A DNA stretch of 64,000 nt from an uncultured bacterium (GTDB lineage Bacteria; Krumholzibacteriota; Krumholzibacteriia; JAJRXK01). Made by a program: the position numbers and the translations under genes. Location: NCBI GenBank assembly GCA_964601275.1, contig CAZRMV010000001.1, forward strand, positions 343,834 to 407,833. The letters are read 5' to 3'. The notes under the pieces are model-generated. The model searched no databases. It was given only the letters and a program-made list of their open reading frames with translations, and was not told where the DNA came from. Numbering within the stretch: the first letter of the stretch is position 1; each line of letters opens with the position of its first letter. Shown here piece after piece: positions 46,793-64,000 of the stretch.

Positions 46793-47188
46793 ATGCGGCC
46801 TTGGACGGGAGACCCACCGGTGCCGACGAAACCATCGAAACAGCTGGAAACCTTTCCCAATCCCCGTCCCTCCCGGCGCTACGAGATCCGTTTCGAGGCG
46901 CCCGAGTTCACCTGCCTGTGCCCGTTGACCGGCCAGCCTGATTTCGCCACCATCCGCATCCGCTACGTCCCCGACGCCCTCTGCGTCGAACTCAAGTCGC
47001 TCAAGCTCTACTTGTGGAGCTACCGGGACGAAGGAGCGTTCCACGAGGATGTGACCAATCGCATCCTGGATGACCTGGTCCGGGTCCTCGATCCCTGGGA
47101 ACTCACCGTCGAGGGCGATTTCATGGTCCGGGGCGGGATCCATACCGTGGTCGAGGTGCGCCACCACAAGTCCCCGCCCGAGGCCTGA
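46793..47188 (+). CDS. queF: NADPH-dependent 7-cyano-7-deazaguanine reductase (QueF, unimodular type)
   Basis: Start MRPWTG within ORF 46706..47188. QueF motifs [20 protein letters not shown] (catalytic Cys) and the substrate-pocket motif [17 protein letters not shown]. Confidence 0.9.
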
Positions 47189-47364
47189 GAGGATTCCCGC
47201 GGTCGGTGAGGGCATATTTCCCCTGTATTCGCCGGTTTCGGCGATCTGGTCCCCCCTTGCGGACCTTCCCTGGACTTTCCTCCCGGGCCGCGGAGTTGCC
47301 GCTTGCGGCGAACTCTTCCCCGGTTTAGGCTGGATACGGACGATCCTCTGAGAGGAGGAAAACT

Positions 47365-47850
47365 ATGACAGCCCTGGATCGGCCGGGTCTCGCCCGCCGG
47401 GTCCTTCTGGACGCGGTGCGGGTGAGCAATCTCTTCGACCGACGATGGGGCGCCGTCACCCAGCGCGCGGACATCACCTCTGCCCAGTGGCTTACGCTCG
47501 GTCTGCTGGTGCGGGAGGGGGGCGAGGTGGGATTCTCTCCCACCGAACTCTGCCGTCGGCTCTGCGTCAGCAAGCAGAACATGACGGGGATGATCGGGCG
47601 CCTGGAAGCAAAAGGTCTCATCGAACGCCGCCCGGACTCCCACGATCGACGCTCGTTTCGGGTACTCACCACCGAAGCGGGAACCACCGCGGTTTCGACC
47701 CTGGCGCCCTTTGAGGATGAATTCTTTCTCCGGCACGTCGATGGCCTCGACGAGGAGCAGTTGAGGGAGACCCTTCGGTGTCTCCGGACGGTGCTCGAAC
47801 ATCTCGAGGCTGAAGAGAAGCGGGCCAAGAAGGCCGCGGCCGCTTCCTGA
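47365..47850 (+). CDS. MarR-family transcriptional regulator
   Basis: RBS GAGGAGG before the ATG. wHTH region ITSAQWLTLGLLVREGGEVGFSPTELCRRLCVSKQNMTGMIGRLEAKGLIERRPDSHDRRSFRVLTTEAG. Confidence 0.85.
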   Translation: MTALDRPGLARRVLLDAVRVSNLFDRRWGAVTQRADITSAQWLTLGLLVREGGEVGFSPTELCRRLCVSKQNMTGMIGRLEAKGLIERRPDSHDRRSFRVLTTEAGTTAVSTLAPFEDEFFLRHVDGLDEEQLRETLRCLRTVLEHLEAEEKRAKKAAAAS

Positions 47851-47898
47851 TCCGGGGAGCGGCCCGAGGCCACCGACAACCTTTGCCGCCCACCGCGG

Positions 47899-49032
47899 TC
47901 AGGCGGAGGGCGGCGTGGTTCCGGTCACCGCGGCCGCGAAATGGGACCACGAGAACCGCGGTCTCGCGCGCACGACCGCGTCCTCCATGGGTACCTGGAG
48001 CTTCTCCGCGAAGAACCGGATCACCGCCGCGGCAAGGGCGGCCGAATCGCCGGGGGGCACGAGCAGGCCGGTCACCCCGTTCTCGACCACTTCTCCCAGG
48101 CCTCCCACCTCCGTGGAGACCACCGCGCGCCCCATGTGGTAGGCGACGGGGATGATTCCGCTCTGGGTGGCGTGACGGTAGGGAAGGACCACCACGTCGG
48201 CGGCGGAGAACCAGGGGGCGACCTGGTCGTTGGGGATGTAGTCGGCCACGAACCGCACCGCGTCCTCCACTCCCTCCCGCCGGACCAGCTCGCGGTAGCG
48301 TGTCTCGTCCTCGTAGAACTCCCCGACCACGAGCAGGCGTGCCCGCGGGCGCGCGTTCCGGATGGCGGGCAGGGCGGAGAGGAGGAGATCGAGTCCCTTG
48401 TAACGGCGGATGAATCCGAAGAAGAGAAGGATCTCATCCTGCGGATCCAGCTCGAGCCGAGCCCGCGCCGCGGCGCGATCCATCGCGTCGCCGAACTGGC
48501 CGTAGAGCGGATGCGGCGTGACCGCGACCCGGGCGGAGGGACAACAGTGGAGCAGGTCCTCCTTCACCGCCTGGGTCATCACCACGAAACGGTCGGCCCG
48601 GGAGAGGAACCACCGGGTGAGCAAGGCGTCCATCGGACGGCGTTCGTGGGGGACCACGTTGTCGGCCACCACCACGGTCTCCGGGCGTCCCCGGCGGACG
48701 CTGCCCCGCAGGATACTCCCGAAGCAGGGCGCGAAGAACGGCATCCAGTAGCGGAACACGAGCAGGTCGGGATCGAGCCGGCGGATTCTCCGGGCGGTCT
48801 TCCACCAACTCCAGGGTTGGATCGAGTCGATCCATGGTTCGGCGCCGACGTCGAGCGCGGCCTCTCCCGGGTGGGTCTGGGACTTCCCGGGGAAGAGCAG
48901 CGCCGGGTACTGCCGGGAGAAGGTGAGGACGTGCACCTGGTGATGCCGCTTCAGTTCACGGGCCAACAGATCGTTGAAGTGGGCGATGCCACCCCGCCAG
49001 GGGCTGGCCGGTCCCAACAGTACGATGCGCAT
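47899..49032 (-). CDS. GT4-family glycosyltransferase
   Basis: Start MRIVLLGPASPWRGGIAHF within ORF 47899..49416 (the N-terminal 128 aa of that ORF are low-complexity). Donor-binding GT4 signature VVLPYRHATQSGIIPVAYHMGRAVVSTEVGGLGEVVENGVTGLLVPP. Confidence 0.85.
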   Translation of the reverse strand: MRIVLLGPASPWRGGIAHFNDLLARELKRHHQVHVLTFSRQYPALLFPGKSQTHPGEAALDVGAEPWIDSIQPWSWWKTARRIRRLDPDLLVFRYWMPFFAPCFGSILRGSVRRGRPETVVVADNVVPHERRPMDALLTRWFLSRADRFVVMTQAVKEDLLHCCPSARVAVTPHPLYGQFGDAMDRAAARARLELDPQDEILLFFGFIRRYKGLDLLLSALPAIRNARPRARLLVVGEFYEDETRYRELVRREGVEDAVRFVADYIPNDQVAPWFSAADVVVLPYRHATQSGIIPVAYHMGRAVVSTEVGGLGEVVENGVTGLLVPPGDSAALAAAVIRFFAEKLQVPMEDAVVRARPRFSWSHFAAAVTGTTPPSA

Positions 49033-49184
49033 CGTCGTCTCCCTGCCGGCTCGACGCGTCGAGTCCTTGCGCTCCACCGCCCGCGATTTCCGGGGACGCC
49101 GCCCGGCGGTTGTGGTGACGCCGCGCGACCGCGTCCCGGCGATTCGGGCTCGGTGGCCGGGGATTCTCTGGTATACTGGCCAGG

Positions 49185-51203
49185 ATGGACCGGGCAGATC
49201 TGATTCTGGGCTCTCTCTTGGCCTACTCCCTGGCCTGTGCCCTCCACCTGGGGCTCGCGGCGATGATCTTCGCACGTCGCCCCCGCCACAGCGAAGTGAA
49301 GATCTTCGCCGGGGCGAATCTCGCGCTCTCCGCCTGGCATTTCCTGCAACTGGTCGAGTATGGCATGGCGCTGCGGACGGGCGGCATCGATCCCTGGTGG
49401 GCGGTGCAGCTGGCACGGGCCCAGGTGATGCTCGAGCTGCTGGTCCTGGTCGTCTTCCTGCAGCTCTTCGCGACCTTCCAGCGGCTGTACCGTCGACCGC
49501 CGCCGAGTCTCCGCGCCGCCATCGTCACCCACGTGCAGCGTCACCGTCGGGTCTACATCGGATTCGCGTGGTGGGGATTGCTCATGGCCCTCTTGCTCTA
49601 CGCCACCGGCGGCGAGCGCTTCCAGGCGCAGGTAGGGCAGTGGCGTTCGCTTCTCGGACCTCTGTCCGCGTATCTCTTCGCCGGGGTCCTCATCTTCCTC
49701 ACCCTGATCCTCTTTCCCGCGCGGCCCGGTCAGGAAGAGGTGGGGGTGGCGGTCGTGGGCCGCGGTCTGCTCCTGTTCATTCTCTCCTTGTGCGCGGTGC
49801 TCGTGGCCTTCTGGCACGATGCGCACCCCACCCGGGTTCGTCTGGCGGTGCTTCCGCTCCTCCATCTGCAGAGCGTTTCCTTCGTCATCTTCTTCAGCCT
49901 GGTCCGATACGAGTTCTCCTTCATGGACCGGTACATCCGCGACGGGCTCCGGTTGCTCTTGTGGTCGGCTCTCGCACTGGTCGTCTACTTCACCTCCAAC
50001 CGGATCGAGTTCGTGGGAGAAAGCTGGGGGCGCTACGCAACGAGCTTGGCCCGGGTGGGACTCATCTTCCTGGCGGTCGCCATCGGACCGGCGTTGGACC
50101 GGGCGAGCCGGCCGTGGCTGGATCGGGTCTTGTTCGACCGCGATGTCAACCTGTACCGGGCGGTGCACCGTTTCGCCGAACGGTTGAGCCGCTCCCGTTC
50201 GCTCACCGAACTGGAGAAGGGAGCCCTGCAGGACATCCAGGCTGCGGTGCACCCGAAGACCTTGCGGTTGTTGGTGGGAGACACGCCGCGCCATCGGAGG
50301 ATCGCCGAGACCCTCGACGACGGGGAGGTCCGTTATCGCTTGAGGATTCCCCTCTTGGCGGCGGGAAGGGCGATGGGCTGGTTGCTTCTGGGGGAACGGC
50401 GCAACTGCTACCCCTGGTTCGACGCCGAACGCCGCTACCTGCGGCTGGTGGGCGAACTGTTGGGAAGCGCCCTGGACGCCATGGGGGCCGGCATGCTCGA
50501 AGTCCGCAGCGGGGCGGCCCAACGCGGCCGCCGGGAGGATCTCGAGAACGAGATCGAGACCCTTCGCCAGGAGCTGCATGCGACGCGCCGCGAGTGCGAG
50601 GCGGCGCGCCGCGAACTGGCGGAGATGAAGGAGAGGCTCGATCCGCAGCTCATCGACGCGGTGCTGGAGATCGCGGTGGAGGTCGCCGAACGCGACGCGG
50701 ACGAGGCCCTGCAGATCCTGAGCACCCTGCGGTGGACCTACGCGTACATCCTCGAAGGGGGCAATCCCCTGGTGACCCTTCGTGTGGAGATGGCCTTCGC
50801 CCGCGATCTGTTGGCCCTGGAGAAACTGCGCCTGCGCAATCAGCTCGAGGTCAGCCTGGCCCTCGACCCCGTCCTCGAGCGGCAGCTCGTTCCCCGGAGG
50901 ATGCTGCAGCCGCTGATCGAGAATGCCCTCAGGCACGGTCTCTCCCGCGAGTTGCGGACGGGCAGGATCCACGTGGGCGCAAGAGCGGTCTCCGGCCGGT
51001 GCGAGATCACGGTGGAAGACAACGGGCGGGGCTTCCTGGGCGATCTGCACCAGGACGCCCTGCGGGGCGACGGAGGATTGGCCCGGGTCCTGCGCGCGCT
51101 CCGCCGGGCCTTCGGGGACGAGGTTTCCTTGCGGCTGCAATCGCCGCGGGAACCGGGCACCCGCATCTGCCTCGAGTTCCCCATCCGTCTCGAGGGCGAA
51201 TGA
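49185..51203 (+). CDS. LytS/YehU-type membrane sensor (His_kinase PF06580-like + HATPase), phospho-acceptor His apparently replaced by Gln
   Basis: About 6 N-terminal TM helices and a linker. A LytS-type dimerisation/H-box region ERLDPQLIDAVLEIAVEVAERDADEALQILSTLRWTY aligns to the consensus QINPHFLFNTLNSI...LSDLLRYSL with Q at the His position. N-box MLQPLIENALRHGL; G-boxes TVEDNGRGF and GTRICLEFP. Confidence 0.7.
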   Translation: MDRADLILGSLLAYSLACALHLGLAAMIFARRPRHSEVKIFAGANLALSAWHFLQLVEYGMALRTGGIDPWWAVQLARAQVMLELLVLVVFLQLFATFQRLYRRPPPSLRAAIVTHVQRHRRVYIGFAWWGLLMALLLYATGGERFQAQVGQWRSLLGPLSAYLFAGVLIFLTLILFPARPGQEEVGVAVVGRGLLLFILSLCAVLVAFWHDAHPTRVRLAVLPLLHLQSVSFVIFFSLVRYEFSFMDRYIRDGLRLLLWSALALVVYFTSNRIEFVGESWGRYATSLARVGLIFLAVAIGPALDRASRPWLDRVLFDRDVNLYRAVHRFAERLSRSRSLTELEKGALQDIQAAVHPKTLRLLVGDTPRHRRIAETLDDGEVRYRLRIPLLAAGRAMGWLLLGERRNCYPWFDAERRYLRLVGELLGSALDAMGAGMLEVRSGAAQRGRREDLENEIETLRQELHATRRECEAARRELAEMKERLDPQLIDAVLEIAVEVAERDADEALQILSTLRWTYAYILEGGNPLVTLRVEMAFARDLLALEKLRLRNQLEVSLALDPVLERQLVPRRMLQPLIENALRHGLSRELRTGRIHVGARAVSGRCEITVEDNGRGFLGDLHQDALRGDGGLARVLRALRRAFGDEVSLRLQSPREPGTRICLEFPIRLEGE

Positions 51204-51288
51204 GCTTCTGCGGCGGATGGCGGAGACGAGGCCGGTGCGGAGGGCGAGGGAAGTGCGCCGGATCCTCGATGCGGCCGCCATGTCACAC

Positions 51289-51963
51289 TCACGGGTGCAG
51301 GTACTTGTAACCCTTCTCCCCTGCCCGGACGGCGGCCTTCAGGCGGTTGCGTTCGGGGGTGATCGGGCAGGACCATGCGCCGCCGTAGGCGCAGTAGGGA
51401 TTGTAGGCCCGGTTGAGATCGAGACGGTACCGGCCGTGGCCCAAGGGAACGGGATCGAGGTAACGACCGGCGGGGTAGGTCTCCACCTCGGTGGTGGCGT
51501 CCAGGAAGGGCAGGAAGAGTTCTCCGTCATCGAGCATGCGGTAGACCGGAAGTCTTTCCATGCCGGCTCCCAGGTCCAGGAGGAAATATCCGATCTCCTC
51601 GGCCTTGCGATCCTCGCCCCCGGTGTCGGGAATGGTGGTGGGACGCGGATGCGCCAGCGGGATCAAGGGGCCCTCCAGGACCCAGCGGGGATCGGGCGGG
51701 TAGAACTGGAGCCCTTTCCAGTGGGGCAGGTCTTCCTTGGGGATCGGTGATTGGCCGGGGTCGCGCCAGGCCCGCTCCCGCGCGGCGCGCTCGGCGCGGA
51801 TCGCGTCCAGGTAGGATGCGGGATCGTCCAGCCGGGCCGGACGGCAGAGTTCGTCGGAACCGCCCCACCCGCAGCCGGCCAGCCAGAGTGCGGCGAGCAG
51901 CAGGAACCCTCCAGTGTACCAGGGCCTCGATCGTGGTCTGATGTCTTGCCTGGATCGCGCCAT
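51289..51963 (-). CDS. DUF1684-family lipoprotein
   Basis: Lipoprotein signal LLLAALWLAGC. DUF1684 signatures FYPPDPRWV, YPAGRYLDPVPLGHGRYRLDLNRAYNPYCAYGGAWSCPITPERNRLKAAVRAGEKGY. Confidence 0.75.
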   Translation of the reverse strand: MARSRQDIRPRSRPWYTGGFLLLAALWLAGCGWGGSDELCRPARLDDPASYLDAIRAERAARERAWRDPGQSPIPKEDLPHWKGLQFYPPDPRWVLEGPLIPLAHPRPTTIPDTGGEDRKAEEIGYFLLDLGAGMERLPVYRMLDDGELFLPFLDATTEVETYPAGRYLDPVPLGHGRYRLDLNRAYNPYCAYGGAWSCPITPERNRLKAAVRAGEKGYKYLHP

Positions 51964-52013
51964 GTCCCTAGCCTAGCAAAGCGACCGATTTCGTCCAATG
52001 CGAGAGGTGACCG

Positions 52014-54479
52014 TTGCCATCGGCCAAGACCGTCATCGTCGTTCTCAACTGGAACGGCAAGCAGGACACCCTCGAGTGTCTCAAGAGCCTGCAGAACGTC
52101 ACCGGCCCCGAGCACGAGATCCTCGTGGTGGACAACGGGAGCGAGGACGGGAGCGAGGAAGCGATCCGGGCCGCCCATCCCGGGATTCCCGTCCTTCAGA
52201 CCGGCTCGAACCTGGGATTCGCCGGAGGGAACAACCGGGGCATCGAGTGGGCCCTGGAGCACGGTGCCGACTTCGTCCTCCTGCTGAACAACGATACCGT
52301 GGTGGCCCCGGATTTCCTCGAGGCCATGGTCGCGGTGGCGCGGGAGGACCCCCAGGTCGGCGTGGTGGGCGCCAGCATCGCCTACGAGGAGCGCCCCGAC
52401 CGACTGTGGGCCTTCGGGGGCGGGCGTTTCGACATCGCCACCGGCTGGGTGCGTCATCTGCAGGAACCGGTGGAAGGCGAGAGACTTCTCCCGCAGGGAA
52501 ACCGGCATTTCTACGTCACCGGTTGCGCGATGCTTCTTCGCCGCGAACTGCTGGAGGAGGTCGGCCTTCTGGACACCTCCTACTTCCATTTCTGCGAGGA
52601 CGTCGATCTGTGCCTTCGCGCGGAGAAAGCGGGGTACGCCGTCGCGGTGGCAGACCGGGCGCGGATCCTACACAAGGTGTCGGCCACCACCCGCGTCTCC
52701 TCCCCGCTCTTTCTCTACTACAACCTGCGCTCGCGCTTGAGCCTCGTGCGCCGTCACGGTCCCGAAGGCGCACCCTCGGCACGGGCGGTGGCGCTTCTCT
52801 GGCTGCGGCTGTGGCGCCCCGCCCTCCTCAGCGGAATGGCGTGGTCCGGATGGAGCGCCTTGCGGCAGGCCTACCGCGACTGGAAGGAAGGACGCCAGGG
52901 GCCGGCTCCGGCCGGCCTGGGATCGTCCGGAAGGAAGCGGGGCCTGCTCGCGGTGGCGGTCTTCCTGCTGTTGGTGGGGGGATGGTGGGCCGGGGGGCAG
53001 CGCTGGCGTTCGGAATCCCGGAACTCTTCGGCCGGCGCGGCGTCTTCGCCGAGCGTCCAGGACCGCCAGCTTCGGTTCGGGGCCGATGCCCGCAGCGAGG
53101 AGGAGATCCTGCGTGCGCTCTGGAAGGATGAAGAGGGGGATCCGCCCCAGGATCTCGCCCACGCTCTCTACGCCATGGCGGCCGACTCCAGCCTGGCCCG
53201 CCGGGTCCGGCAGAGGGCCGACCGGCGCTCCCGGCGGCTCACCCACCGGCTCCTCACCCTGCTCGATCTGAGCGACCGTCAGGCCCGGGAGAGGATCGAC
53301 GGGCTCTACGAGGTGCACGATTTCGGGGCCCAGCCCGGTCACCGTCCTCCCACATGGAGCGACCTGCGCCGCCAGGGAGTCGAGCTGTTGCAGGCCATCG
53401 CGCTCGATCCGGAAAACGGCCGCGACGCCCGCCTCCTGCGGGAGATCGCCGGGGACGAACTCTCCCACACCCGCGGGTACGCGCGCGCCAGCCTGGTGGC
53501 GGCCCGGGTGGAACTGTGGAAGGCCTGGTGGATCGATCGGGGAATGGATCCCCGCCTGTGGTTGGACCCGGCCCGCCGGCCCGACCCCGGGCCCTGGCTC
53601 AGGGCCCTGCGTTCGCCCCCCGGACGGGGCGGCCGCACCCTCCTCGACCTGCTCGAGGAGATCCTGGATCATCCGCTGGCCCGGAGGGTCCTGCTGGACT
53701 CCCTCGATCGACGGGTGGACGAGGAGCTGGTCAGCGAGTGCGTCCAGGTGGCGATGATGTACCAGGTCGATTTCTCCGCCGCCGGTTTTTCCCGGCGGCA
53801 TTGGGATGCGCAACGGGGGCGCATGGTGGGACACAACGCCTCGGAGCTCCGCGACGTGGCCCTGGAGATGTTGCCCCGGGTGTGTTCCTTTCTCCCCAGC
53901 GGGGCCACCGAGGACGAGGTGATCAAGAGCATCGCGTTCTGGTGGAAGGGGGCGCGCTTCCAGGCGCAGTACTATCGCGATCCGGATGCCGCTCCCACCC
54001 TCGAGCCCTGGCTGGCCGGTCTGGACCGGCCGGCCGATGAGGGCGGGATGCCCATGCCCCGCATCTTGCGCCAGTGGTACGTCGCCGATGGGTTCCAGGG
54101 CATCCTCCTGGACCAGTTGGACCGGGTGGGTCAGGGCCTGGTTGCCGAACTCATCGAGTGGCTCGGCTACGATCAAGAGCAGGCGCGCGCGCGGGGATTC
54201 GTCTTCGCCTACCGCCGGATGCCCCTGCGACCGGTGCCCGGCGATCAGGGTCGGATGTGGGCCATCCCGTGGAGCGGGGTCCAGGCTCTCATCCGAGAGA
54301 TGCTACGGCGGATCACCGGCGACGCGGGACTTCCCGAGCAGGGGATGGAAGAAGACCTGCGCAACGGGTTCTGGATCGATTGGTGGAGGGCCCACGCCCA
54401 CGAGGCGCGCTGGTATCGCAACGGGCGGCCCCAACCCGCTCCTCCGCGCTTCGAGATGGAACGCGCGGGAGGAGACTGA
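52014..54479 (+). CDS. GT2-family glycosyltransferase (WbbL/rhamnosyltransferase-like 'NWN' subfamily) fused via a TM helix to a ~480-aa C-terminal domain of unknown function
   Basis: N-terminal ~290 aa with VIVVLNWNGKQDTLECL, ILVVDNGSEDGS, NLGFAGGNNRGI and DxD-like FCEDVDLC. One predicted TM segment (LLAVAVFLLLVGGWWAGG). The helical, W/R-rich C-terminal domain matches nothing I recognise. Confidence 0.75.
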   Translation: MPSAKTVIVVLNWNGKQDTLECLKSLQNVTGPEHEILVVDNGSEDGSEEAIRAAHPGIPVLQTGSNLGFAGGNNRGIEWALEHGADFVLLLNNDTVVAPDFLEAMVAVAREDPQVGVVGASIAYEERPDRLWAFGGGRFDIATGWVRHLQEPVEGERLLPQGNRHFYVTGCAMLLRRELLEEVGLLDTSYFHFCEDVDLCLRAEKAGYAVAVADRARILHKVSATTRVSSPLFLYYNLRSRLSLVRRHGPEGAPSARAVALLWLRLWRPALLSGMAWSGWSALRQAYRDWKEGRQGPAPAGLGSSGRKRGLLAVAVFLLLVGGWWAGGQRWRSESRNSSAGAASSPSVQDRQLRFGADARSEEEILRALWKDEEGDPPQDLAHALYAMAADSSLARRVRQRADRRSRRLTHRLLTLLDLSDRQARERIDGLYEVHDFGAQPGHRPPTWSDLRRQGVELLQAIALDPENGRDARLLREIAGDELSHTRGYARASLVAARVELWKAWWIDRGMDPRLWLDPARRPDPGPWLRALRSPPGRGGRTLLDLLEEILDHPLARRVLLDSLDRRVDEELVSECVQVAMMYQVDFSAAGFSRRHWDAQRGRMVGHNASELRDVALEMLPRVCSFLPSGATEDEVIKSIAFWWKGARFQAQYYRDPDAAPTLEPWLAGLDRPADEGGMPMPRILRQWYVADGFQGILLDQLDRVGQGLVAELIEWLGYDQEQARARGFVFAYRRMPLRPVPGDQGRMWAIPWSGVQALIREMLRRITGDAGLPEQGMEEDLRNGFWIDWWRAHAHEARWYRNGRPQPAPPRFEMERAGGD

Positions 54480-54493
54480 AGGACGGACCCAGG

Positions 54494-56629
54494 ATGCGAC
54501 CTTCCCTTTTCTTCCCGCGATCCCCTCGTCCCCCCGGGGCGTTCGTGCTCTTCGGCCTCTGGGTCCTTCTGATCGTGGGGGGCGCACTCGGGTGCGGTGG
54601 CTCGGTCCCCCTGCGCCGGACCGGCGCCCTGAACCGTCCGGAACTCATGGATCACCCGGCGATCGAGAACGCCGCCATCACCTTGCTCGAGGCGGCCCGG
54701 GCCGCCCTGCGCGACGGGGTGGCGCCCGACGCCCCCCAGCGCTGGATGCTCAGCCCCCTGGTCACCGGGGACGGCGATTGGGAGGCCTCGGTGCTGTGCT
54801 GGGACCTGGCCAGCCGGATCGGCCGGCTGCGCCCGGTGGACGCCGGGGACCGGCTCGAGTCGGTGCCGGCGATCCAGGCCTGGCTGCGCCGGGTGGGTTC
54901 GGAGGCGGTGGTCTGGGTGGTCACCAGCCGGGGGAGGTATCGACCGAGTCTGGGGCTCACCATCTGCTCGGGAACCCGGAGCTGGTCCAGCGCGCCGGTG
55001 GAGGTGGGGATTCCCCGCGACGAGATCTGGGCCTGGCCCTTCGATCCGCAGGAGAACCCTCCTCTGGCCCGGCTCGATCTGGACGGCGGCGAGGCCTTCT
55101 TCGAATGGGAAGGGAAGGTCTACGTGGAGGATCGCCGGGGCGCCCGGGAACTGAGCTGGCACCGGGGCAAGAGGGAACTGGTGGCCGGCAAGCTGCGCCC
55201 CTGGAAGGACTTCGGCCGCACCTGGATCACCCGGCACCAGGGGCTGCCCGAAGATCCCAGTCCCGCCTTGAGCCTGTTGCGCCGGGATCTGCGCCTCGTC
55301 CTGCGGGATCTGGATCTTCCCCGCGGGGAAGGGGAGATCATGCGATGGTGGTTGAGCCGGGGAGGGGGCGCCATCGAGCTGCCCCTGCGCCGTGCCACCG
55401 CCGAGCAGGTGCGGGGAATCCAGGCGGCTCCCCGGGGTTGGGACGAACGGGGTACCTGGCTGGTCCTTCGCGAAGCCCCCGGCCACAACCCCTGGGTCGA
55501 ACTCTATGCCGCGTCGTTGCGCAAGCTGCCCCGACCCAGGGAACGGAAGGAGAACCCCAGGGAGACCATCCGGGTGCTCTGTGATGTGGACCATCCGTTC
55601 ACCCTCCCGGGACCCGCGTGGGCCCTGAAGGAGACCCATGAACTCGAGATCGCGCGGACGCCGCCGGGAGTGGACTGGGCCTTGACCGCGCGTTGGAATC
55701 CCCTGTTTCCCTGGCTCAGTCCCCTGGAATTCTGGCAGCGGGGGGTGGTGGGTCTCGATGCGGTGCGTCGGGGAGAGATCGATCCTTCGATGCACGTGGT
55801 GCGGATGTGCGCCCTCGAAGACGAGTTTCCCCGCTGGGTGGCCCGATCCGCGAGGGGACCGTTGGCGCTGGGGGACCGCGCGTTCTGGCGTCGATTCCCC
55901 GCCATTCCGCTCTACGGCGTGGCACGGGTCGATCCACGGCTGCCCCGCCGGGTGCGCCGGACCCTGGCCGGATGGTTGGCCCAGTTGGGGCCCTTCGAAC
56001 TCTTCGGCCTGGACCGCGAGGATCTCCGGCCGCGGATGCCCCTCACCGGCGATCTGCGTCCTCCCCGGGAAGACGCCGGGCCCGCGCCTTCGCAGTGGCC
56101 CTTGGCGGTGGTGGATTCGCTCCGGGAGCGGGGAGGGTTGCGTCTCAGTTTCTGCGGATCTCCCGGTCTGCTGGATCCCTCTCCCTACACCTGGCGGCGG
56201 GAACTGGAACGACGGCTGCGATTCCTCCTGGAGCAGGCGGGGGTCCCGCTGGCCCCGAGGTCGCAAGGCGCGGCGGGACCGGAGTGTCCGCCGGAGACCC
56301 GGTATGCCACTCCTCTGCCCAGCGGTGTCGACCTGGCGCGGCTGATCCTTCCGTTCGCCGAACCCCGCGCGCGGATGGACGCGCTGCTGACCGGCCTGGG
56401 ACTGCGGGAGAGGTGGCGGCGGGATCACCCGGAGAGCGACCCGTCCGAGGTGGAAGAATGGCTTCTGGACGAGGGCTACCTGGTGCCCTTGTGGACCGAA
56501 CCGGGAGCGGTCTTCATCGACCGGCGCCTGGCGGCGTGTGTCCATGATTCGATGATGGTCCTACCCGACCTGCGGGAGGCGGTCCTGGTTCCCGAGGAAG
56601 AACTCGCACCCTTCGACCGGCAACGATGA
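54494..56629 (+). CDS. secreted/lipoprotein-like hypothetical protein (711 aa), W-rich periplasmic domain of unknown function
   Basis: Start MRPSLFFPRSP within ORF 54074..56629, 14 nt after the GT2-fusion stop. Signal region FVLFGLWVLLIVGGALGCGGS. Its stop overlaps the next gene's ATG (ATGA). No family recognised. Confidence 0.5.
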   Translation: MRPSLFFPRSPRPPGAFVLFGLWVLLIVGGALGCGGSVPLRRTGALNRPELMDHPAIENAAITLLEAARAALRDGVAPDAPQRWMLSPLVTGDGDWEASVLCWDLASRIGRLRPVDAGDRLESVPAIQAWLRRVGSEAVVWVVTSRGRYRPSLGLTICSGTRSWSSAPVEVGIPRDEIWAWPFDPQENPPLARLDLDGGEAFFEWEGKVYVEDRRGARELSWHRGKRELVAGKLRPWKDFGRTWITRHQGLPEDPSPALSLLRRDLRLVLRDLDLPRGEGEIMRWWLSRGGGAIELPLRRATAEQVRGIQAAPRGWDERGTWLVLREAPGHNPWVELYAASLRKLPRPRERKENPRETIRVLCDVDHPFTLPGPAWALKETHELEIARTPPGVDWALTARWNPLFPWLSPLEFWQRGVVGLDAVRRGEIDPSMHVVRMCALEDEFPRWVARSARGPLALGDRAFWRRFPAIPLYGVARVDPRLPRRVRRTLAGWLAQLGPFELFGLDREDLRPRMPLTGDLRPPREDAGPAPSQWPLAVVDSLRERGGLRLSFCGSPGLLDPSPYTWRRELERRLRFLLEQAGVPLAPRSQGAAGPECPPETRYATPLPSGVDLARLILPFAEPRARMDALLTGLGLRERWRRDHPESDPSEVEEWLLDEGYLVPLWTEPGAVFIDRRLAACVHDSMMVLPDLREAVLVPEEELAPFDRQR

Positions 56630-58356
56630 GTCTGCGGCTTCGATGGACCCTGGTCCTCTCGGCGGGTGCACTCCTGCTGTTGGGGGTGACCGGCGGGTTC
56701 ATCCTGCACCAGGCGCAACAGATCGAGCGGGAAAGCGACACAGCCTGGAGGAACGAGCGCGCCGGCGCGTTGCAGGAGGGACTTCGGCAATGGTCCCGGG
56801 TCACGGCGGCCGCCCTGGACGACCTGGTCGGATCTCCGCGCTTCGGCGCGTTCCTGCGGCAAGCGGTCCCACAGGAAGACGAAGGGCGGCGTGAGGTGGT
56901 GCTCTGGGCCGAGCGTTTCGCTCCCCGTTTCGGACTCGAGCTGTTGATCGTTCTGGACGAGGACGGAAGGATCCTCAGCCAGGTGCCCGGCCCCGAGGCC
57001 CACGGGATCGTCCATCCCCATTTTCCGTGGTTCACCCGGGCGGCCCCCGGCGGCCCGGAGAGCGGGGTCGCCGTCTGGCCCGGCTGGGTTCGAAGAACGG
57101 ATTCTGCGCCCACGCTTGAACGGCCGTGGTGGGTGGGGACGATCCGCCGGGTTCGACCGGCCGGCGAACGCTCGATCTGGGTCGTGGGGGCCCGGGAACT
57201 CTCCCGGTCGGTGCAAGTCGATCTGGCCGCCCGCGCCGGCCTGGAACGGCTGGAGATGGGACTGGAGGTGGGTGGGCTCCAAGTGGCGCCTCTACCCCCG
57301 GACTGGCGCGCGATGGAGCCTCTTCCCCTGGTCTTCGATCCCGGCCCGTCCCCGGCGGCCGGGGTCCTGCGAGATCTGCGGGCGCGCCTGTCGCGGCGAC
57401 TTGCGCTGGGAGCGGTCCTCGTGCTCCTCTTGACTCCCTGGGTGGCGGCCGGATTGACCCGGCCGGTGCGTCGGCTGCAGGACGCGGTGAGCCGGATGCG
57501 GGCGGGAGAGCGTCGACTCGAGTTGAAGACCCGGGGCCCCCGTGAACTGCGGGAGCTGAGCGAGGCCCTGGTCCAGCTCTCCCAGGAGCTCGACGCGATC
57601 CAGGCCCGGGCGGAAGCCCAGCAGCGGCAAGCGGCGTGGGGTGGAATGGCGCGGCGAGTGGCCCACGAGCTCAAGAACGCGCTCAGTCCCCTCACCCTCG
57701 CCCTCGACAACGTGGAAACCGCGGCCCTTTCGGAACCGACCGAAGAGATGCGGGAGGATCTTCGCAAGAGCCTCGGGACCGCCCGCGAACAACTGGCGAG
57801 TCTCGACCGGCTGGTCCGTGGCTTCCGGGATTTCGCCCGCATGCCCCCCCTCGCGGTGGAGGAGGTCGACGCGCGGGCGCTGGCCGCTGCCGCGGTCGCC
57901 GCGGTCGAGACCGCCTTCGACCGCCACCGTTTCGTGGTGGAAGAGCGCTCCACCGTCGGAGCCATCGAGGCGGACGGAGAGCAGTTGCGCCGGGTGATGC
58001 AGAATCTCCTGCAGAACGCGGCCGAGGCGAGCCTGGAGGGAGTGGTGGAATTGACCCTGGGGGCCGGACCGGGACCGGGGCAATGGTGGTTCGCGGTCGG
58101 CGATCGTGGACCGGGTCTGCCCGAGGAGATCCGCCGCCATTGGGGCGAAGCGTACCGGACCACCAAGGCGGAAGGGACCGGCCTGGGCCTGGCGATCGCC
58201 CGGCAGGTGATCGAAGCGCATGGGGGACGTCTGGATGTACAGGACCGTCCTCGCGGAGGGCTCCTGGTGCGCGCCACCTTGCCGCGCAAGCAGCAAGCGA
58301 CAACCGTGTCCCGGCCGGCCTCGCCGCGGGACCCGCGAAGGGAGGATCGCCGATGA
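56626..58356 (+). CDS. sensor histidine kinase (TM, HAMP, HisKA of NtrB/AtoS type, HATPase_c)
   Basis: Two TM segments (N-terminal; second in [19 protein letters not shown]). H-box [14 protein letters not shown]; N-box [13 protein letters not shown]; G-boxes GDRGPGLP and [18 protein letters not shown]. Confidence 0.8.
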
Positions 58357-59702
58357 GCCCCCGGATCCTGGTGGTCGATGACGAGAGAAACATCCGCGTC
58401 ATGCTGGAGCAGATGCTGCGGCTGGCCCACTACGAGGTGGAGTGCGTAGGGACCGCCGAAGAAGCGCTGGAGCGCTGCCGGCAGGGGGGAGTGGACGCCC
58501 TGTTGCTGGACGTGCGTCTTCCCGGGATGGATGGGCTCGGTCTGTTGAAGGCCCTGTTGGCCGAGGATCCCCGCCTGGCCGTGGTGATGATGAGTGGACA
58601 CGGCACCATCGAGACCGCGGTGGAGGCGGTGCGCGCGGGCGCCCTCGATTTCCTGGAGAAACCGCTCACCCGGGACAAGACCCTCCTGACCCTTGAGAGC
58701 GCGTTGCGCCGGGGAGAACTCGAACGGGAGAACCGGCGCCTCAAGGAAAAGGGTTTCCGGCACGAGTTGCTCGGTGATTCGAAGGTGATGGCCGCGCTCC
58801 GGGAACAGATCGCCAAGGTTGCGCCGACCACCGCGCGGGTTCTCATCGAAGGGGAGAGCGGAACCGGCAAGGAGCTCGTCGCGCGGGCGATCCATCAGCA
58901 GAGCCCGCGCGCCAAACGCCCCTTCCTCGCGGTGAACTGCGCGGCCATCCCGGGTGAACTCATCGAGAGCGAACTCTTCGGCCACGTACGGGGCGCGTTC
59001 ACCGGGGCGACGACCGCGCGAAGCGGGGTCTTCGAGGAAGCCGACGGCGGCACGCTCTTCCTCGACGAGATCGGGGACATGCCCTTGCCGATGCAGGCGA
59101 AGCTGCTGCGGGTTCTCGAGTCCTCCCGCTTCGCCCGGGTCGGGAGCACCCGGGAGCTGACCGTCGACGTGCGGGTGATCGCCGCGACCCACCACGACCT
59201 GCCCGGGGAGGTCCGCAAGGGAAACTTCCGCGAGGATCTCTACCATCGTCTCAAGGTGGTGCCCCTGCGCGTTCCGCCCCTGCGGGAGCGGGAAGGAGAT
59301 ATCGTGCAGTTGGCGCGGCACTTCCTGCGCCTGGAATGCGCGCGCCAGAAGAGTCCTCCCCGCAGCTTCACCCCCGCAGCGCTCCGCGCCCTGCAGGCCT
59401 ACCGGTGGCCGGGGAACGTCCGGGAACTCCGCAATCTCATCGAGCGCCTGGTCATCCTGGGCTCCCACGAAGACATCGGGCGGGACGAGGTGGGTGCCGC
59501 CCTGGCCGGCGCGGGGGAGAGCGAGGTGGTAGCGGACCTGAAGAGCGCGGTCGAGAAGGCCGAGCGGGAAGCGATCGGGGCGGCCCTGCGGGCCAGCGGG
59601 GGCAACGTGAGCAAGGCCGCCCGACGTCTGGGACTCGAACGCAGTCACCTCTACAAGAAGGCCCGGGCGCTGGGCATCCCCCTGCGCGAGGACGAAGCCT
59701 GA
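58353..59702 (+). CDS. sigma-54-dependent response regulator (NtrC family: REC, AAA+ sigma54-activator, Fis-type HTH)
   Basis: Start [11 protein letters not shown] overlaps the HK stop (ATGA). REC D in [12 protein letters not shown]. Walker A GESGTGKE; GAFTGA motif in VRGAFTGA; ESELFGH; C-terminal [29 protein letters not shown]. Confidence 0.9.
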
Positions 59703-59760
59703 GGGCGCATTGGCTGCCGGCCACGGCCGGCGCGAAGAGAAGCTCGGCTCCTCGGGAGCG

Positions 59761-59788
59761 GAAACTGTGTCCGCAGGGACACGGTTTC
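59761..59788 (+). terminator. GC-rich hairpin (12-bp stem, GCAG loop) 59 nt after the response-regulator gene; candidate terminator or operator
   Basis: GAAACTGTGTCC-GCAG-GGACACGGTTTC, one G-U wobble; no U-tract follows. Confidence 0.35.
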
Positions 59789-59924
59789 GAGGGCGCCGGT
59801 TTTCTCGCAATTCGTGGAACCTTCCAGATCACAATGGGTTGCCGGATTCCTTCCGCCTGGAACGCCGCGTGCGGTGGGACGGGGCATCGAAGCCATCCCC
59901 GTTCCCTTGCGAAAGGATCCGATC

Positions 59925-60902
59925 ATGAAGTGGTCTGTCGTCGCAATCTTGACCCTCGCCCTCTTCGTCTACGGTCTGTTGCTGGCCATCCATGCTTCCC
60001 GGGAGCCCGCTTCCGGGCCGGTTTCCGGTGCTGGACCTTCCGGGCCGATTTCCAGTGTCGCTTCCTCCGATTCCGGGTTCCATTCGGTCGCCGCCACCGA
60101 GGATTCCTCCGGCGCCGCGGGATCCGGCGGAACCGCACCTTTCCCGGTGGTCGTGGAGTCTTCCCGACAGCCCTGGGCCGACGGGTGCCGGCTCTACGAG
60201 GAGGGGCGCTTCGACGAAGCCCTCGAGTCCCTGCGGAACGCGGTGCGCCAGGCGCCGGAGCGAGCGGGACGACATGAGCTTCTCGGGCGCTGCGCCCTGC
60301 GGACGGGCGACCCGCAGCTCGCCGTCGATGAGCTGGAACGCGCCGTGGAACTCGATCCCACCCGCCGCCGCGCCTGGTCCGGGCTGGGACGCGCCTACCT
60401 GGCCCTCAAGGACCTGGAGGCGGCCCGGGAGGCGGTGGACATGGCCCTGGAGATCGATCTCGGCTTCGCCGACGCCTGGGAGGTGCTCGGTCTCCTCGAG
60501 ACGGACGCGGGCAAGCTGGAGGCGGCCACGGCGGCCTTTTCCCGGGCGGTCCAGCTGGATCCGCGGTTTGCGTGGGCCTGGAACAACCTGGGATATGTCC
60601 AGATCCTGAGGGGCCGGTTCGCCGAGGCGGTGCGGCCCCTGAGCGAGGCGGCCGGCCTGCGGCCCGCCGAAGCCGTCTTCCAGAACAACCTGGGGGTCGC
60701 CCTCGAGCGGACCGGGGAGTTGGTCGAAGCGGAGCGGGCCTATGCCCGGGCCGCCGAGGCGGGACACCCCACCGCTCCGGCCAGCGCCCAGCGGGTGGAG
60801 GAGAGGATCCTGGCCCACGGGGGTCCAGCGCACCGGGATTCCCTGGCGGCGGTGCTTCCCCATCCGACCCAGGTGGCGGTGTCGGACAGTACCCGCTGGT
60901 GA
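59925..60902 (+). CDS. tetratricopeptide-repeat (TPR) protein with N-terminal membrane anchor/signal
   Basis: Start MKWSVVAILTLALFVYGLLLAIHA within ORF 59814..60902. A low-complexity S/G linker, then at least five TPR units (A/L/Y periodicity, e.g. AWSGLGRAYLALKDLEAAREAVDMALEID, AWEVLGLLETDAGKLEAATAAFSRAVQLDP, AWNNLGYVQILRGRFAEA). Confidence 0.7.
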   Translation: MKWSVVAILTLALFVYGLLLAIHASREPASGPVSGAGPSGPISSVASSDSGFHSVAATEDSSGAAGSGGTAPFPVVVESSRQPWADGCRLYEEGRFDEALESLRNAVRQAPERAGRHELLGRCALRTGDPQLAVDELERAVELDPTRRRAWSGLGRAYLALKDLEAAREAVDMALEIDLGFADAWEVLGLLETDAGKLEAATAAFSRAVQLDPRFAWAWNNLGYVQILRGRFAEAVRPLSEAAGLRPAEAVFQNNLGVALERTGELVEAERAYARAAEAGHPTAPASAQRVEERILAHGGPAHRDSLAAVLPHPTQVAVSDSTRW

Positions 60903-60933
60903 GCCGCCTCCGGTCGGTGGCCTCTCTCGATGG

Positions 60934-60977
60934 CCCGTTCCCTCATTCCCACCGGATGAAGTCCATGAGGGAACGGG
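60934..60977 (+). terminator. intrinsic-terminator-like hairpin after the TPR gene (13-bp perfect stem)
   Basis: CCCGTTCCCTCAT N18 ATGAGGGAACGGG followed by TCTTGCACATTCTCTCC; begins ~30 nt after the stop codon. Confidence 0.5.
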
Positions 60978-61091
60978 TCTTGCACATTCTCTCCCCGGTG
61001 CGCCGGAACGGGGGGAAACCGGCGCCGAAATGGCTCCTCAACGACCACCTTTTCCCGGCATGGCGGCCAGAAACCGCTCGGCTCCACAACC

Positions 61092-61844
61092 ATGATGCTG
61101 CTCCTGGAATCTCTCGATCCTTCCCAACGTTCCGCGTCGTTCCGTGCGGTTTCCGGCAGCTCGCTGGAGGTGCGGGAGGAATTCGCCCGGATCGCCGAAG
61201 TCGCCGCGGGTCTGGGCTACCGGGACCTCCTGCTTCATTTCGCGACCTCATCGAGCGGGATCACCCAACTCCAGGCCTACGTGGGCCCCGAGCGCCGGTC
61301 GCATCGCCGGGGATGTCTGGGGGAATCGACCCTTCCGCTCGACGGCGGCCCCCTCGCGGTCGCCACCCTGCCGCGCATCGTCCTGGCCAGCCAACTGGAG
61401 GAGAGTCATCCCCGCTACCAGTTGGATCTGGAAGCGTCCACGGAGAGCACGACGCTGCTGGACGAGGCACTCCGCCTGCTCCTGGCGACCTGGGGAGACG
61501 AGAGCGAGGCTCTGCTGCAGTTGCGGACCGCGCTGTTCGAGATCGGATCCCACCTGCTCGATCATGCGGAGAGTCTGAAGTCGCGCGCCGGGGCGGCCGT
61601 CGCCGACACCCTCCAACTGGTCGTGCGCTTCAGCGACGAAGGGATCCAGGGCTGGTTCCATGACGACGGACCTCCCTTCGACCCCTCGTCGGAAAACGGG
61701 GTGCACCTGCACGACGAGATCATCGCCCGGCGCTTCCATGCCGGGGACGCACCGGGTTGGTTCTGCGGACTTCTCGACGAGTACGAACACGCCCTCGAGC
61801 CTGACGGCAACCGGATCGGGTTCCACAAGAAGGTGGGACGATGA
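61092..61844 (+). CDS. hypothetical protein with C-terminal GHKL/HATPase_c_2-like (RsbW/SpoIIAB-type anti-sigma kinase-like) domain
   Basis: 250 aa. The C-terminal half (LRTALFEIGSHLLDHAESLKSRAGAAVADTLQLVVRFSDEGIQGWFHDDGPPFDPS) fits the HATPase_c_2 pattern. The N-terminal half is unassigned. Its stop overlaps the next gene's ATG. Confidence 0.4.
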   Translation: MMLLLESLDPSQRSASFRAVSGSSLEVREEFARIAEVAAGLGYRDLLLHFATSSSGITQLQAYVGPERRSHRRGCLGESTLPLDGGPLAVATLPRIVLASQLEESHPRYQLDLEASTESTTLLDEALRLLLATWGDESEALLQLRTALFEIGSHLLDHAESLKSRAGAAVADTLQLVVRFSDEGIQGWFHDDGPPFDPSSENGVHLHDEIIARRFHAGDAPGWFCGLLDEYEHALEPDGNRIGFHKKVGR

Positions 61845-63235
61845 GCCGACTGTTGACCGGACACGATATGGAAGTCCGCCTCCAATTGCAGAGCCGGGCC
61901 TTCGAAGGGATCTTCGATCTCCTCCGATCGCTGGGCAGTACCCTCGAACTCGACAAGGTGGCCAAGCTGTCCCTCCTGACCGTGGTGGGGCAACTTCGGG
62001 TGGAGCGGGTCGCCCTGTACCTGCCCTCCGGAGGAAGATCCCGGTTTCGGCTGCTCAAGTCGGTCGGGGTGGAGGGAGTCGATCTGCCCGGATCGATCGA
62101 GAACACCGAGGCGATGGAGGCGGTCCTGAGCGCACAGGCGGGAACCGTGGACATCGATCCCTGGTGGGACATGCCCGAGGAGATCCGGCGTCAATTCGAA
62201 TACGCGGCCTATTTGCGCGACTCGAAGCGACCGGTGGCGCTTCTGCTCCTGGGGGGAAGGATTCCCGGGAATCGCTTGGACGAAAGCGAGGAAAGCCTGC
62301 TGTCGGCCATGGGTATGGTGATCGGGACGATGGTCCAACGCTCGCTCACCTACGAGCACATGCTGCGCGCGAAGTTGAAGATGGAGGAAGCCAACCAACT
62401 GCGCAAAGTCATCCTCGACCACGTCAGCCACGAGTTCAACACGCCCTTGATGGTCGCCAAGAGCGTCGTGGAACTGGCGCGGGACGCCGATCCGGAAAAA
62501 CAGAAGGAACTCTTCGACATGCACCAGGAAGCGGTGGACCGTCTCTCCGAGCTGGTGCAGTCGTTGCTCCGGGTCGCCGACGAGAGTGAAGACCCGGAGA
62601 ACCAGATCCCGGTGGAGCTTCTCTCCATGTCCCAACCGGTGTTCGTGGCCGATGTCATCAGCCCGCAACTCTACAAGCAGGACCTCAGCGGGTTCCACGT
62701 CGTCGAGGGCCATCTGCTCGAGCCGTCCACCTACGTGAAGATCGACCCGGCCAAGGTCAAGGCGGTGTTGGACGGGCTGTTGCTCAACGCCCGCCGCTTC
62801 GCCCGCGACGAGTATTCCTGGGCCGCGGTGCATTGTTACGCGACGTCGTATCAGTGGTGGACGGAGCGGCCGCAGATCGATCGTCTTCCCCTGTACCGGG
62901 AGATCCTCCACGGGAGCTCGGATCGCCAGATGTTGCCGCTCTTCCTCCCCGGGGAGAGCCCGCCTCCCGGCCCGCATCCTCCGCGGGACATGTGTGTGGT
63001 GGTCGAGGTCATCGACTCGGGGATCGGCATTCCCGAACCCGATCTGGAATCCATCTTCCAGCCCTTCGCGCAAGGCAGCAATTCGCCCCTGAAGGGAGTC
63101 CGGGGCGCTGGGATGGGGCTGGCGAGTTGCCGGAGGATGGTCAAGGAGATCCGCGGAGAGCTGGTGGTCAAGAGCAAGGAAGACGAAGGCAGCATCTTCG
63201 CCCTCCTGCTTCCCGCGTACTGGGAGAGCCCCTAG
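61841..63235 (+). CDS. GAF-domain sensor histidine kinase (GAF, HisKA, HATPase_c), cytoplasmic
   Basis: No TM segments. N-terminal GAF-like region (LELDKVAKLSLLTVVGQLRVERVALYL). H-box VILDHVSHEFNTPLMVAKS. HATPase motifs VEVIDSGIGIPEPDLESIFQPF and GAGMGLASCRRMV. Confidence 0.8.
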   Translation: MSRLLTGHDMEVRLQLQSRAFEGIFDLLRSLGSTLELDKVAKLSLLTVVGQLRVERVALYLPSGGRSRFRLLKSVGVEGVDLPGSIENTEAMEAVLSAQAGTVDIDPWWDMPEEIRRQFEYAAYLRDSKRPVALLLLGGRIPGNRLDESEESLLSAMGMVIGTMVQRSLTYEHMLRAKLKMEEANQLRKVILDHVSHEFNTPLMVAKSVVELARDADPEKQKELFDMHQEAVDRLSELVQSLLRVADESEDPENQIPVELLSMSQPVFVADVISPQLYKQDLSGFHVVEGHLLEPSTYVKIDPAKVKAVLDGLLLNARRFARDEYSWAAVHCYATSYQWWTERPQIDRLPLYREILHGSSDRQMLPLFLPGESPPPGPHPPRDMCVVVEVIDSGIGIPEPDLESIFQPFAQGSNSPLKGVRGAGMGLASCRRMVKEIRGELVVKSKEDEGSIFALLLPAYWESP

Positions 63236-63361
63236 GCTCTTCGTCGTTCCGGCCCCGGCCCTGGGGATCGGATGGATCTCCGCACTTCCGGCCCCTGAAG
63301 CCGGCTCGAACCCGGACCATTCCTTGTCAACCACCCCCGGGGCGGGCATCATGGCCGGGCC

Positions 63362-64000
63362 ATGACCGACGCCTCTTCACCTTGGTACCGCAAGCTGCAC
63401 AACCAGGTGCTGCTGTCCATGCTTGCCGGCGTGATCCTCGCGGTTCTCTTCGGGGAGGGCGCAATGCGCTGGACCGGCTGGATGGGCACCATCTTCATCC
63501 GCCTGTTGAAGATGGTGATCGTTCCGTTGATCCTGACCAGCATCGTTTCCGGGGTCGCGTCGGTGGGCGGGGGCAAGAGCCTGGGCCGCCTGGGATTGAA
63601 GACCCTCGTCTACTACCTGGTCACCAGCATGATCGCGGTCCTGACCGGCCTGGTCCTGGTGAACCTGTTCAAACCCGGGGTTGGGGCGAATCTGGCGGGG
63701 GCGGTCCAGGGGGAGCTACCGTCGTTGAGCACTCCGAACAGTCTCGCCGAGATCTTCCTGAGGATGATTCCCGAGAACCCCATCGCCGCGATGGCCCAGG
63801 GGGACATGCTGGCGGTCATCTTCTTCGCCATCGTCTGCGGTGTCGCCCTGGTACACCTGCCGAACGCCCGGCGCGAACCCCTGACCCGGCTGGTCGACGC
63901 CGGATTCGAATGGATGATGTCGATCACCTCCGGGGTCATCCGCCTGGCTCCACTGGGGGTCTTGGGACTCATCACCACCGCGGTGGCCACGTCCGGGCTC
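63362..64000 (+). CDS. dicarboxylate/amino-acid:cation symporter (DAACS; GltP/DctA/SstT-like), 5' part only (runs off the window)
   Basis: ATG at 63362 opens an uninterrupted frame to the window end; it is absent from the ORF track because it has no stop. MTDASSPWYRKLHNQVLLSMLAGVILAVLFGE..., IFIRLLKMVIVPLILTSIVSGVASVG and LKTLVYYLVTSMIAVLTGLVLVNLFKPG are typical of DAACS TM1-3. Confidence 0.8.
   Translation, partial: MTDASSPWYRKLHNQVLLSMLAGVILAVLFGEGAMRWTGWMGTIFIRLLKMVIVPLILTSIVSGVASVGGGKSLGRLGLKTLVYYLVTSMIAVLTGLVLVNLFKPGVGANLAGAVQGELPSLSTPNSLAEIFLRMIPENPIAAMAQGDMLAVIFFAIVCGVALVHLPNARREPLTRLVDAGFEWMMSITSGVIRLAPLGVLGLITTAVATSGL

Follow-up and report, generated by a model that had tools for sequence, protein, structure and literature searches.

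An envelope glycosyltransferase operon with an orphan periplasmic domain encodes the probable sigma-54 activator of an adjacent tetratricopeptide repeat gene in an uncultured Krumholzibacteriota bacterium

We analysed a stretch of DNA (the window: 64 kb of a 535-kb contig, ~68% GC) from an uncultured Krumholzibacteriota bacterium. Four of its genes, g1 to g4, form one tightly coupled same-strand block and a genuine operon. The g1 product is a family 2 glycosyltransferase (GT2) joined by a single transmembrane (TM) helix to an orphan, predicted periplasmic domain, here called X; g2 encodes an orphan lipoprotein, g3 a sensor histidine kinase (HK) and g4 an NtrC-family bacterial enhancer-binding protein (bEBP) of the sigma-54 type. 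Judging from conserved regulatory sequences, the operon is not itself sigma-54-regulated and encodes the predicted activator of the adjacent gene, which specifies a tetratricopeptide repeat (TPR) protein. Our favoured explanation, held tentatively, is a Krumholzibacteriota-specific envelope module of two linked halves, one made of GT2-X and the lipoprotein and the other of the kinase and bEBP driving the TPR protein. The features are as follows, with coordinates in the window.

51946-51974, plus strand: candidate sigma-70-like promoter, TTGCCT-N17-TAGCCT, within the 50 bp between g1 and the divergently oriented DUF1684 gene
52002-52016, plus strand: Shine-Dalgarno sequence GAGAGGTG, invariant in five loci, and TTG start codon of g1
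52014-54479, plus strand: g1, 821 amino acids (aa), with cytoplasmic GT2, one TM helix, a variable linker and predicted periplasmic domain X
52014-52919, plus strand: GT2 (GT-A) domain of g1, residues 1 to ~302
52941-52997, plus strand: TM helix of g1, residues 310-328, a single hydrophobic segment
53109-54476, plus strand: domain X, g1 residues 366-821 (456 aa), an orphan domain predicted to be periplasmic
54494-56629, plus strand: g2, 711 aa, orphan lipoprotein with lipobox ALGC and Cys34
56626-58356, plus strand: g3, 576 aa, sensor HK with HAMP, HisKA (H347) and HATPase_c domains
58353-59702, plus strand: g4, 449 aa, NtrC-family sigma-54 enhancer-binding response regulator with REC, Sigma54_activat (AAA+), AAA_lid_14 and Fis-type HTH_8 domains
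59767-59782, no strand: palindrome GTGTC-N6-GACAC directly downstream of g4, probable enhancer (upstream activator site, UAS) of g4
59858-59873, plus strand: sigma-54-type -24/-12 element TGGAACGCCGCGTGCG, ~50 nt before the TPR start codon
59925-60902, plus strand: TPR protein gene, 325 aa, with N-terminal membrane anchor, Ser/Gly/Pro-rich linker and TPR repeats

An earlier reading made from the letters alone (the sequence-only reading) had proposed these four genes as a coupled same-strand block, and the operon structure bears it out. All four open reading frames (ORFs) are present where it placed them, as are the 14-nt gap between the stop codon of g1 (54477-54479) and the ATG of g2 (54494) and the two ATGA overlaps, at 56626-56629 (g2/g3) and 58353-58356 (g3/g4). 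No terminator-like hairpin or site was found between the four genes, and no Rfam RNA family was detected in 47000-64000. Codon-position GC of g1-g4 (GC3 0.81-0.86, GC2 0.45-0.54) gives a high-GC coding signature. Long ORFs of up to 1098 aa also run antisense to the operon (56514-59810, 54245-56545 and 52668-54176, all minus strand); they lack this signature, and because of their codon-position GC pattern we regard them as artefacts of high-GC composition rather than genes.

The conserved regulatory signal of the locus lies downstream of the operon. A plain scan of the window for TGGCAC-N5-TTGCW gave 20 matches with 16.6 expected, that is, no enrichment, and the sigma-54 signal was found solely by aligning the orthologous bEBP-TPR spacers of five loci. 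The palindrome GTGTC-N6-GACAC occurs once in the window; eight related loci carry one or two copies, always in the bEBP-TPR spacer and nowhere else in those loci. Its arms are invariant in the spacer alignment and its spacer varies, as one would expect of a site bound by protein and not of an RNA hairpin. At +75/+76 nt from the proximal palindrome end, six loci (the window and the related loci L001, L003, L007, L010 and L011) hold a YGG-N10-TGC element, which stands ~50 nt ahead of the TPR start codon, and in all six the GG/GC spacing, the palindrome ~100 nt upstream and the intergenic position are those of a sigma-54 promoter with its UAS. Because this classical layout of enhancer and -24/-12 element stands in front of the TPR gene, we assign that gene as the probable sigma-54-dependent target of g4. 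Paired palindromes 66-68 bp apart are seen at L001:17580-17662, L003:17571-17654, L007:16499-16581 and L011:5091-5172; the window and L010 hold the proximal palindrome only. In most relatives the DNA that separates the promoter from the proximal palindrome includes an AT-rich stretch, which may be a bending or IHF-like site.

Upstream of g1 the picture is different. The spacer there is strongly conserved, and neither a GG-N10-GC element with the correct spacing nor the bEBP palindrome was found in it; one would-be sigma-54 element upstream of g1 was rejected, its spacing in the window being off by one and the relatives lacking the GG. Both hexamers of TTGCCT-N17-TAGCCT are invariant in an alignment of five loci, and we read this sequence as a candidate sigma-70-type promoter of the operon. 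The sequence-only reading had suggested sigma-54 regulation of the operon itself, which is not supported, since the only conserved enhancer and promoter follow the bEBP gene and the region upstream of g1 looks sigma-70-like. It had also reported no sigma-54 promoter before the operon; this is right for the region upstream of g1, but such a promoter does exist downstream of g4. The TTG start of g1 is unusual, but five orthologous loci have the invariant GAGAGGTG followed, at equal distance, by TTG or GTG, which makes it credible. The DUF1684 lipoprotein gene (51289-51963) adjoins g1 as that reading said, with the correction that it is encoded on the opposite (minus) strand and diverges from g1 across a 50-bp gap.

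The kinase and regulator are recognizable from their domains, in agreement with the HAMP/HisKA kinase and sigma-54 bEBP with intact GAFTGA described in the sequence-only reading. In g3, TM1 (residues 9-27) is followed by a ~230-aa periplasmic sensor domain without a family assignment, then by TM2 (259-277), HAMP, HisKA and HATPase_c. The g4 protein has the make-up of a bEBP, with matches to PF00072 (95.5 bits), PF00158 (245.4) and PF02954 (44) and GAFTGA at residues 214-219. It scores below the equivalog cut-offs of NtrC (TIGR01818; 462 versus 558.6), NtrX (443.5 versus 600) and AtoC (426.6 versus 714).

The GT2 domain of g1 was correctly identified in the sequence-only reading as WbbL-like and followed by a single TM helix. 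PF00535 matches residues 8-183 with 82.2 bits (gathering cut-off 23.3), which places the domain in the GT2 family; g1 has one hydrophobic segment (residues 310-328), with a basic stretch just before it; and the GT2 catalytic acidic motifs are invariant across six full-length homologues. Its top NCBIfam matches are all non-processive and all below equivalog cut-offs (MftF, rhamnosyltransferase, EpsD and GlfT1, at 77, 71, 58 and 51 bits), and its scores against processive models fall far outside those families (PgaC_IcaA 40.9 versus 422.3; CelA 15.5 versus 699.1). By these scores and the single hydrophobic segment, the g1 GT2 is of the non-processive, single-TM type and not a synthase-type enzyme.

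Domain X has no match in sequence searches of Pfam, NCBIfam and the PDB with g1 residues ~340-821. Its AlphaFold2 model is confident (predicted local distance difference test score (pLDDT) 91, predicted template modelling score 0.83) and all-alpha; fold searches with it against the PDB, the only fold library searched, returned no match and no similarity to BcsB or to periplasmic binding-protein folds. In 10 of 21 relatives X is a stand-alone protein of 460-499 aa, each with an export signal at its N terminus: a lipobox in P0019 and a signal peptide in the others. Because of these export signals, X appears to be an autonomous secreted module that faces the periplasm in g1, and the single TM helix after a basic stretch agrees with a periplasmic or extracytoplasmic location. 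Conserved residues of X are mostly Trp, Gly and Arg, with two Asp, in the motifs GRDxR, WWxDRG, ARFQARYxRD and DWW; they do not justify a catalytic assignment.

The g2 protein is equally isolated, with no family match in Pfam and NCBIfam searches. Its signal peptide ends in a lipobox (LIVGGALGC) whose Cys is invariant in 5/5 homologues, which identifies it as a lipoprotein by motif inspection. The g2 model (pLDDT 46) is too poor for inference about the whole protein: a candidate LpoB/PelC-like N-terminal domain, at 14% sequence identity, covers ~15% of g2, the remaining model being unreliable. Apart from this candidate domain, Pfam, NCBIfam and PDB sequence and fold searches were empty for both X and the lipoprotein, so the two remain as unassignable as the sequence-only reading found them. 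We considered X and g2 as paralogues and rejected this (BLASTP E 0.9).

In close relatives (X 58-67% identical) GT2 and X are likewise fused, and the g2, kinase and bEBP genes overlap as they do in the window; the wider gene order is also retained: a family 4 glycosyltransferase (GT4), a LytS-like HK and DUF1684 before the operon and, after it, the TPR gene, a 250-aa protein with no family match, a GAF-HK and SDF. In the window, L001, L003, L011 and L013, neighbouring genes of the block either overlap by an ATGA or lie no more than 14 nt apart, and the TPR gene follows the bEBP gene in L001, L003, L007, L010 and L011.

A more distant clade (L010/L009 and L011), with X 32-33% identical to that of the window, has the two parts of g1 as separate genes. 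There the GT2 is a 306-aa protein, 69% identical to the GT2 part of g1, that ends where the g1 linker begins, before the TM segment; X is a secreted protein encoded next after it, the two genes overlapping by 4 nt in L011 and standing ~31 nt apart in L010. In L010 and L011 X is followed by the orthologous kinase, bEBP and TPR gene, the L011 kinase being 33% identical to g3 over its full length, sensor domain included, and the L010 TPR protein 39% identical. Upstream lie a LytS-like HK (36%) and DUF1684 (49% identity), downstream SDF. The lipoprotein gene g2 is absent from both loci; an 857-aa ORF upstream in L010 was considered as its relative and rejected as a probably spurious antisense ORF. 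Between clades the GT2 is 69% identical (52014-52919 versus L010:8905-9822) and X, kinase and TPR 32-39%, which suggests that the cytoplasmic GT2 is much more constrained than the periplasmic parts.

The close relative L004 (JAOZPE01) shows another form of the locus. It has the LytS-HK, DUF1684, GT2-X and g2, and lacks the HAMP kinase, bEBP and TPR genes as one block, g2 being directly followed by the 250-aa protein (74% identical to window 61092-61844), GAF-HK and SDF (L004:11368-17189; JAOZPE010000016.1). Such a joint loss is what one would predict for a TPR gene that belongs with the regulator. Neighbourhood conservation, the check proposed by the sequence-only reading, thus gives a mixed answer: GT2, X, HK and bEBP stay together even at 32% identity of X, although the lipoprotein is missing there, and L004 keeps GT2-X with the lipoprotein but not the regulators. 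The four genes need not occur together. Their distribution suggests that GT2 and X are a fusion/split pair, that g2 is a clade-specific addition, and that HK, bEBP and TPR behave as one unit.

Proteins of these families are extremely rare. Word-indexed searches of 5.8 billion clustered proteins gave seven relatives of X and five of g2, an exhaustive profile search with HMMER found only 21 X proteins among 1.84 billion representatives, and a third search, whose profile was built from distant X members, contributed just two more proteins. A metagenome scan found three loci, and a species-representative genome collection four loci in three metagenome-assembled genomes (MAGs), all Candidatus Krumholzibacteriota or Krumholzibacteriia. 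All relatives come from Candidatus Krumholzibacteriota or from unassigned metagenome contigs, and no source searched held a name for these proteins.

Several neighbouring features deserve mention. Two full copies of the neighbourhood, L005 and L007 (CAVSGG010000008.1 and CAVSGG010000009.1; contigs of ~0.5 Mb each, X 62% and 64% identical to the window), occur in MAG bin MFD05684.bin.2.283, which may mix two strains or carry a large duplication. The LytS-type (PF06580) multi-TM kinase (49185-51203, plus strand) has no LytTR regulator beside it; together with the DUF1684 lipoprotein, it is syntenic even in the L010 clade, and the two may share the functional neighbourhood of the operon. At 61092-63235 (plus strand), the 250-aa protein and a cytoplasmic GAF-HisKA-HATPase kinase are encoded with an ATGA overlap; this pair is absent from L010, where the SDF transporter gene comes directly after the TPR gene. 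A PMT_2/GT87-type GT-C transferase (43065-45185, minus strand) and the GT4 (47899-49416, minus strand) lie a few kb upstream of the operon. Ser/Gly/Pro-rich linkers like the one after the TPR-protein anchor are often O-glycosylated; to tie the g1 GT2 to a possible glycosylation of this linker would be pure speculation.

In the module that we tentatively favour, one half would begin with a probably sigma-70-driven operon that yields g1, a non-processive GT2 tethered to X, and g2. The other half would be made from the same transcript, with g3 as a periplasm-sensing kinase and g4 as an NtrC-type regulator that would bind GTGTC-N6-GACAC just downstream of its own gene and switch on the sigma-54 promoter of the gene for the TPR protein, predicted to be membrane-anchored and periplasmic. 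At the inner face of the membrane the GT2 might transfer a sugar onto an acceptor that is lipid-linked or lies close to the membrane; on the periplasmic side X, with the lipoprotein where present, might bind the product or handle it. The kinase could then read the periplasmic state, possibly via X, whose gene lies immediately upstream of the kinase gene wherever the lipoprotein is absent, and would adjust how much TPR scaffold is made. What we observe is the structure of the genes and the topology of their products, X and g2 as orphans, GT2 and X in both fused and split form, and an arrangement of enhancer and promoter that is conserved; the substrate, any contact between X and the kinase and every biochemical step of the scheme we infer.

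A number of observations weigh against this module. Neither X, g2, the kinase sensor domain nor the TPR protein has a known function, and the GT2-X fusion could have arisen neutrally, a stop codon being lost and the signal peptide of X becoming a TM anchor. On the regulatory side, the -12 element of the window (GTGCG) is a weak match to TTGCW, the window has a single palindrome where most relatives have two, and no rpoN gene was seen within the 64 kb. In L004, GT2-X and g2 have been kept although the two-component system is gone. Moreover, LytS-like HK, DUF1684, GT2, X, HK, bEBP, TPR and SDF are collinear in all relatives; because the region is collinear and the relatives all belong to one phylum, adjacency may simply be inherited, and synteny alone is weak evidence of function. 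The main rival, which we consider possible though somewhat doubtful, is that a GT2-X (and lipoprotein) envelope unit and an HK-bEBP-TPR unit that senses something unrelated are independent neighbours, their spacing reflecting genome compaction. The clean-block absence of HK, bEBP and TPR beside GT2-X and g2 in L004 fits this, as do the absence of g2 in L010 and L011, synteny that reaches well past the four genes in every relative, and the lack of both bEBP palindrome and sigma-54 promoter upstream of g1. It sits less easily with the tight junctions in five loci (ATGA overlaps, or no more than 14 nt between genes), with the lack of a terminator between the genes, and with the way X remains directly upstream of the kinase in clades where it has diverged to 32% identity.

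Other explanations seem less probable. The chief role of X might be to assist the kinase as a periplasmic co-sensor, as LuxP does for LuxQ or TorT for TorS, with the GT2 linked by position and the fusion accidental. In the split clade X is secreted and stand-alone, its gene abuts the kinase gene, and X and kinase have diverged alike (32-33% identity; GT2 69%), as a co-sensor would suggest; L004, however, keeps a GT2-fused X without the kinase, and X resembles no periplasmic binding-protein fold, and we think this unlikely. Still less probable is that g3, g4 and the TPR protein form a diverged trio of the PrsK/PrsR/PrsT type (PEP-CTERM/exosortase), which would control exopolysaccharide-linked proteins. 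Prs systems comprise a transmembrane HK, a sigma-54 response regulator and a TPR protein in tandem near glycosyltransferases, with a conserved upstream activator site and a -24/-12 promoter (Haft et al. 2006, PMC1569441), that is, the same gene set and motifs, and all three NCBIfam models give sub-threshold matches here. Those matches fall well short of membership, however (PrsK, TIGR02916, 76.7 versus 300; PrsR, TIGR02915, 408.6 versus 502.6; PrsT, TIGR02917, 73.8 versus 312.2), NtrC, NtrX, AtoC, AtoS and PilW models score equal or higher, no window ORF has a PEP-CTERM-like tail, and the motif precedes the TPR gene itself rather than PEP-CTERM genes. The sequence-only reading drew an analogy with BcsA/BcsB and PgaC/PgaD; as in those synthase-dependent exopolysaccharide systems, GT2-X would polymerize and translocate a glycan. 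This explanation is very improbable and already contradicted: one TM helix provides no translocation channel, the best matches are non-processive GT2s with the PgaC and CelA models far below cut-off, the split-clade GT2 of 306 aa ends before the TM segment, and X shows no similarity to BcsB.

If the parts of the favoured module do cooperate, the locus would be a compact case of an envelope glycosyltransferase connected to a periplasmic sensor and a sigma-54 output of its own, in a phylum without cultured members. It would also give two orphan families their first functional context, X being a confidently predicted fold without a solved relative. A bolder version, which we consider unlikely, is that X is a new periplasmic fold and forms, with the lipoprotein, the outer half of an undescribed envelope-glycan pathway, whose state the co-transcribed kinase reads, either directly or by way of X, to set sigma-54-dependent TPR production; if true, an uncultured phylum would have a glycosylation circuit of its own that monitors itself. 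As the families are so rare (21 representative clusters for X), the impact would be lineage-specific. Today's practical value is more modest: a comparatively validated enhancer/promoter pair and a directly testable assignment of the TPR gene to the bEBP.

Compared with known systems, the g1 GT2 resembles WbbL/rhamnosyltransferase, MftF, EpsD and GlfT1 enzymes in its GT-A fold, its DxD and ED motifs and its C-terminal amphipathic membrane-association helices; to our knowledge, no described member of these types is fused via a TM helix to a 456-aa periplasmic domain. BcsA/BcsB and PgaC/PgaD share with it a GT2 encoded beside a periplasmic partner, whereas g1 has no multi-TM channel, no family-level score and is of the non-processive type. 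For g2, the likeness to LpoB/PelC/TolB-N-type lipoprotein domains is too limited in identity and extent to justify functional inference. The g3/g4 pair shares HisKA and HATPase_c on one side and REC, AAA+ (GAFTGA) and Fis-type helix-turn-helix on the other with NtrB/NtrC, NtrY/NtrX and AtoS/AtoC, but g3 is a periplasm-sensing HAMP kinase, unlike cytoplasmic NtrB, and g4 lies below the NtrC, NtrX and AtoC cut-offs. PrsK/PrsR/PrsT is the closest described layout to g3, g4 and the TPR gene, a resemblance and not a membership: g3 differs from PrsK in having two TM helices, a periplasmic domain and HAMP, and the TPR protein is a 325-aa protein with a TM anchor, whereas PrsT is a ~900-aa lipoprotein. 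The locus thus combines known building blocks with two orphan proteins confined to one candidate phylum, as an envelope glycosyltransferase locus with a sigma-54 two-component regulator.

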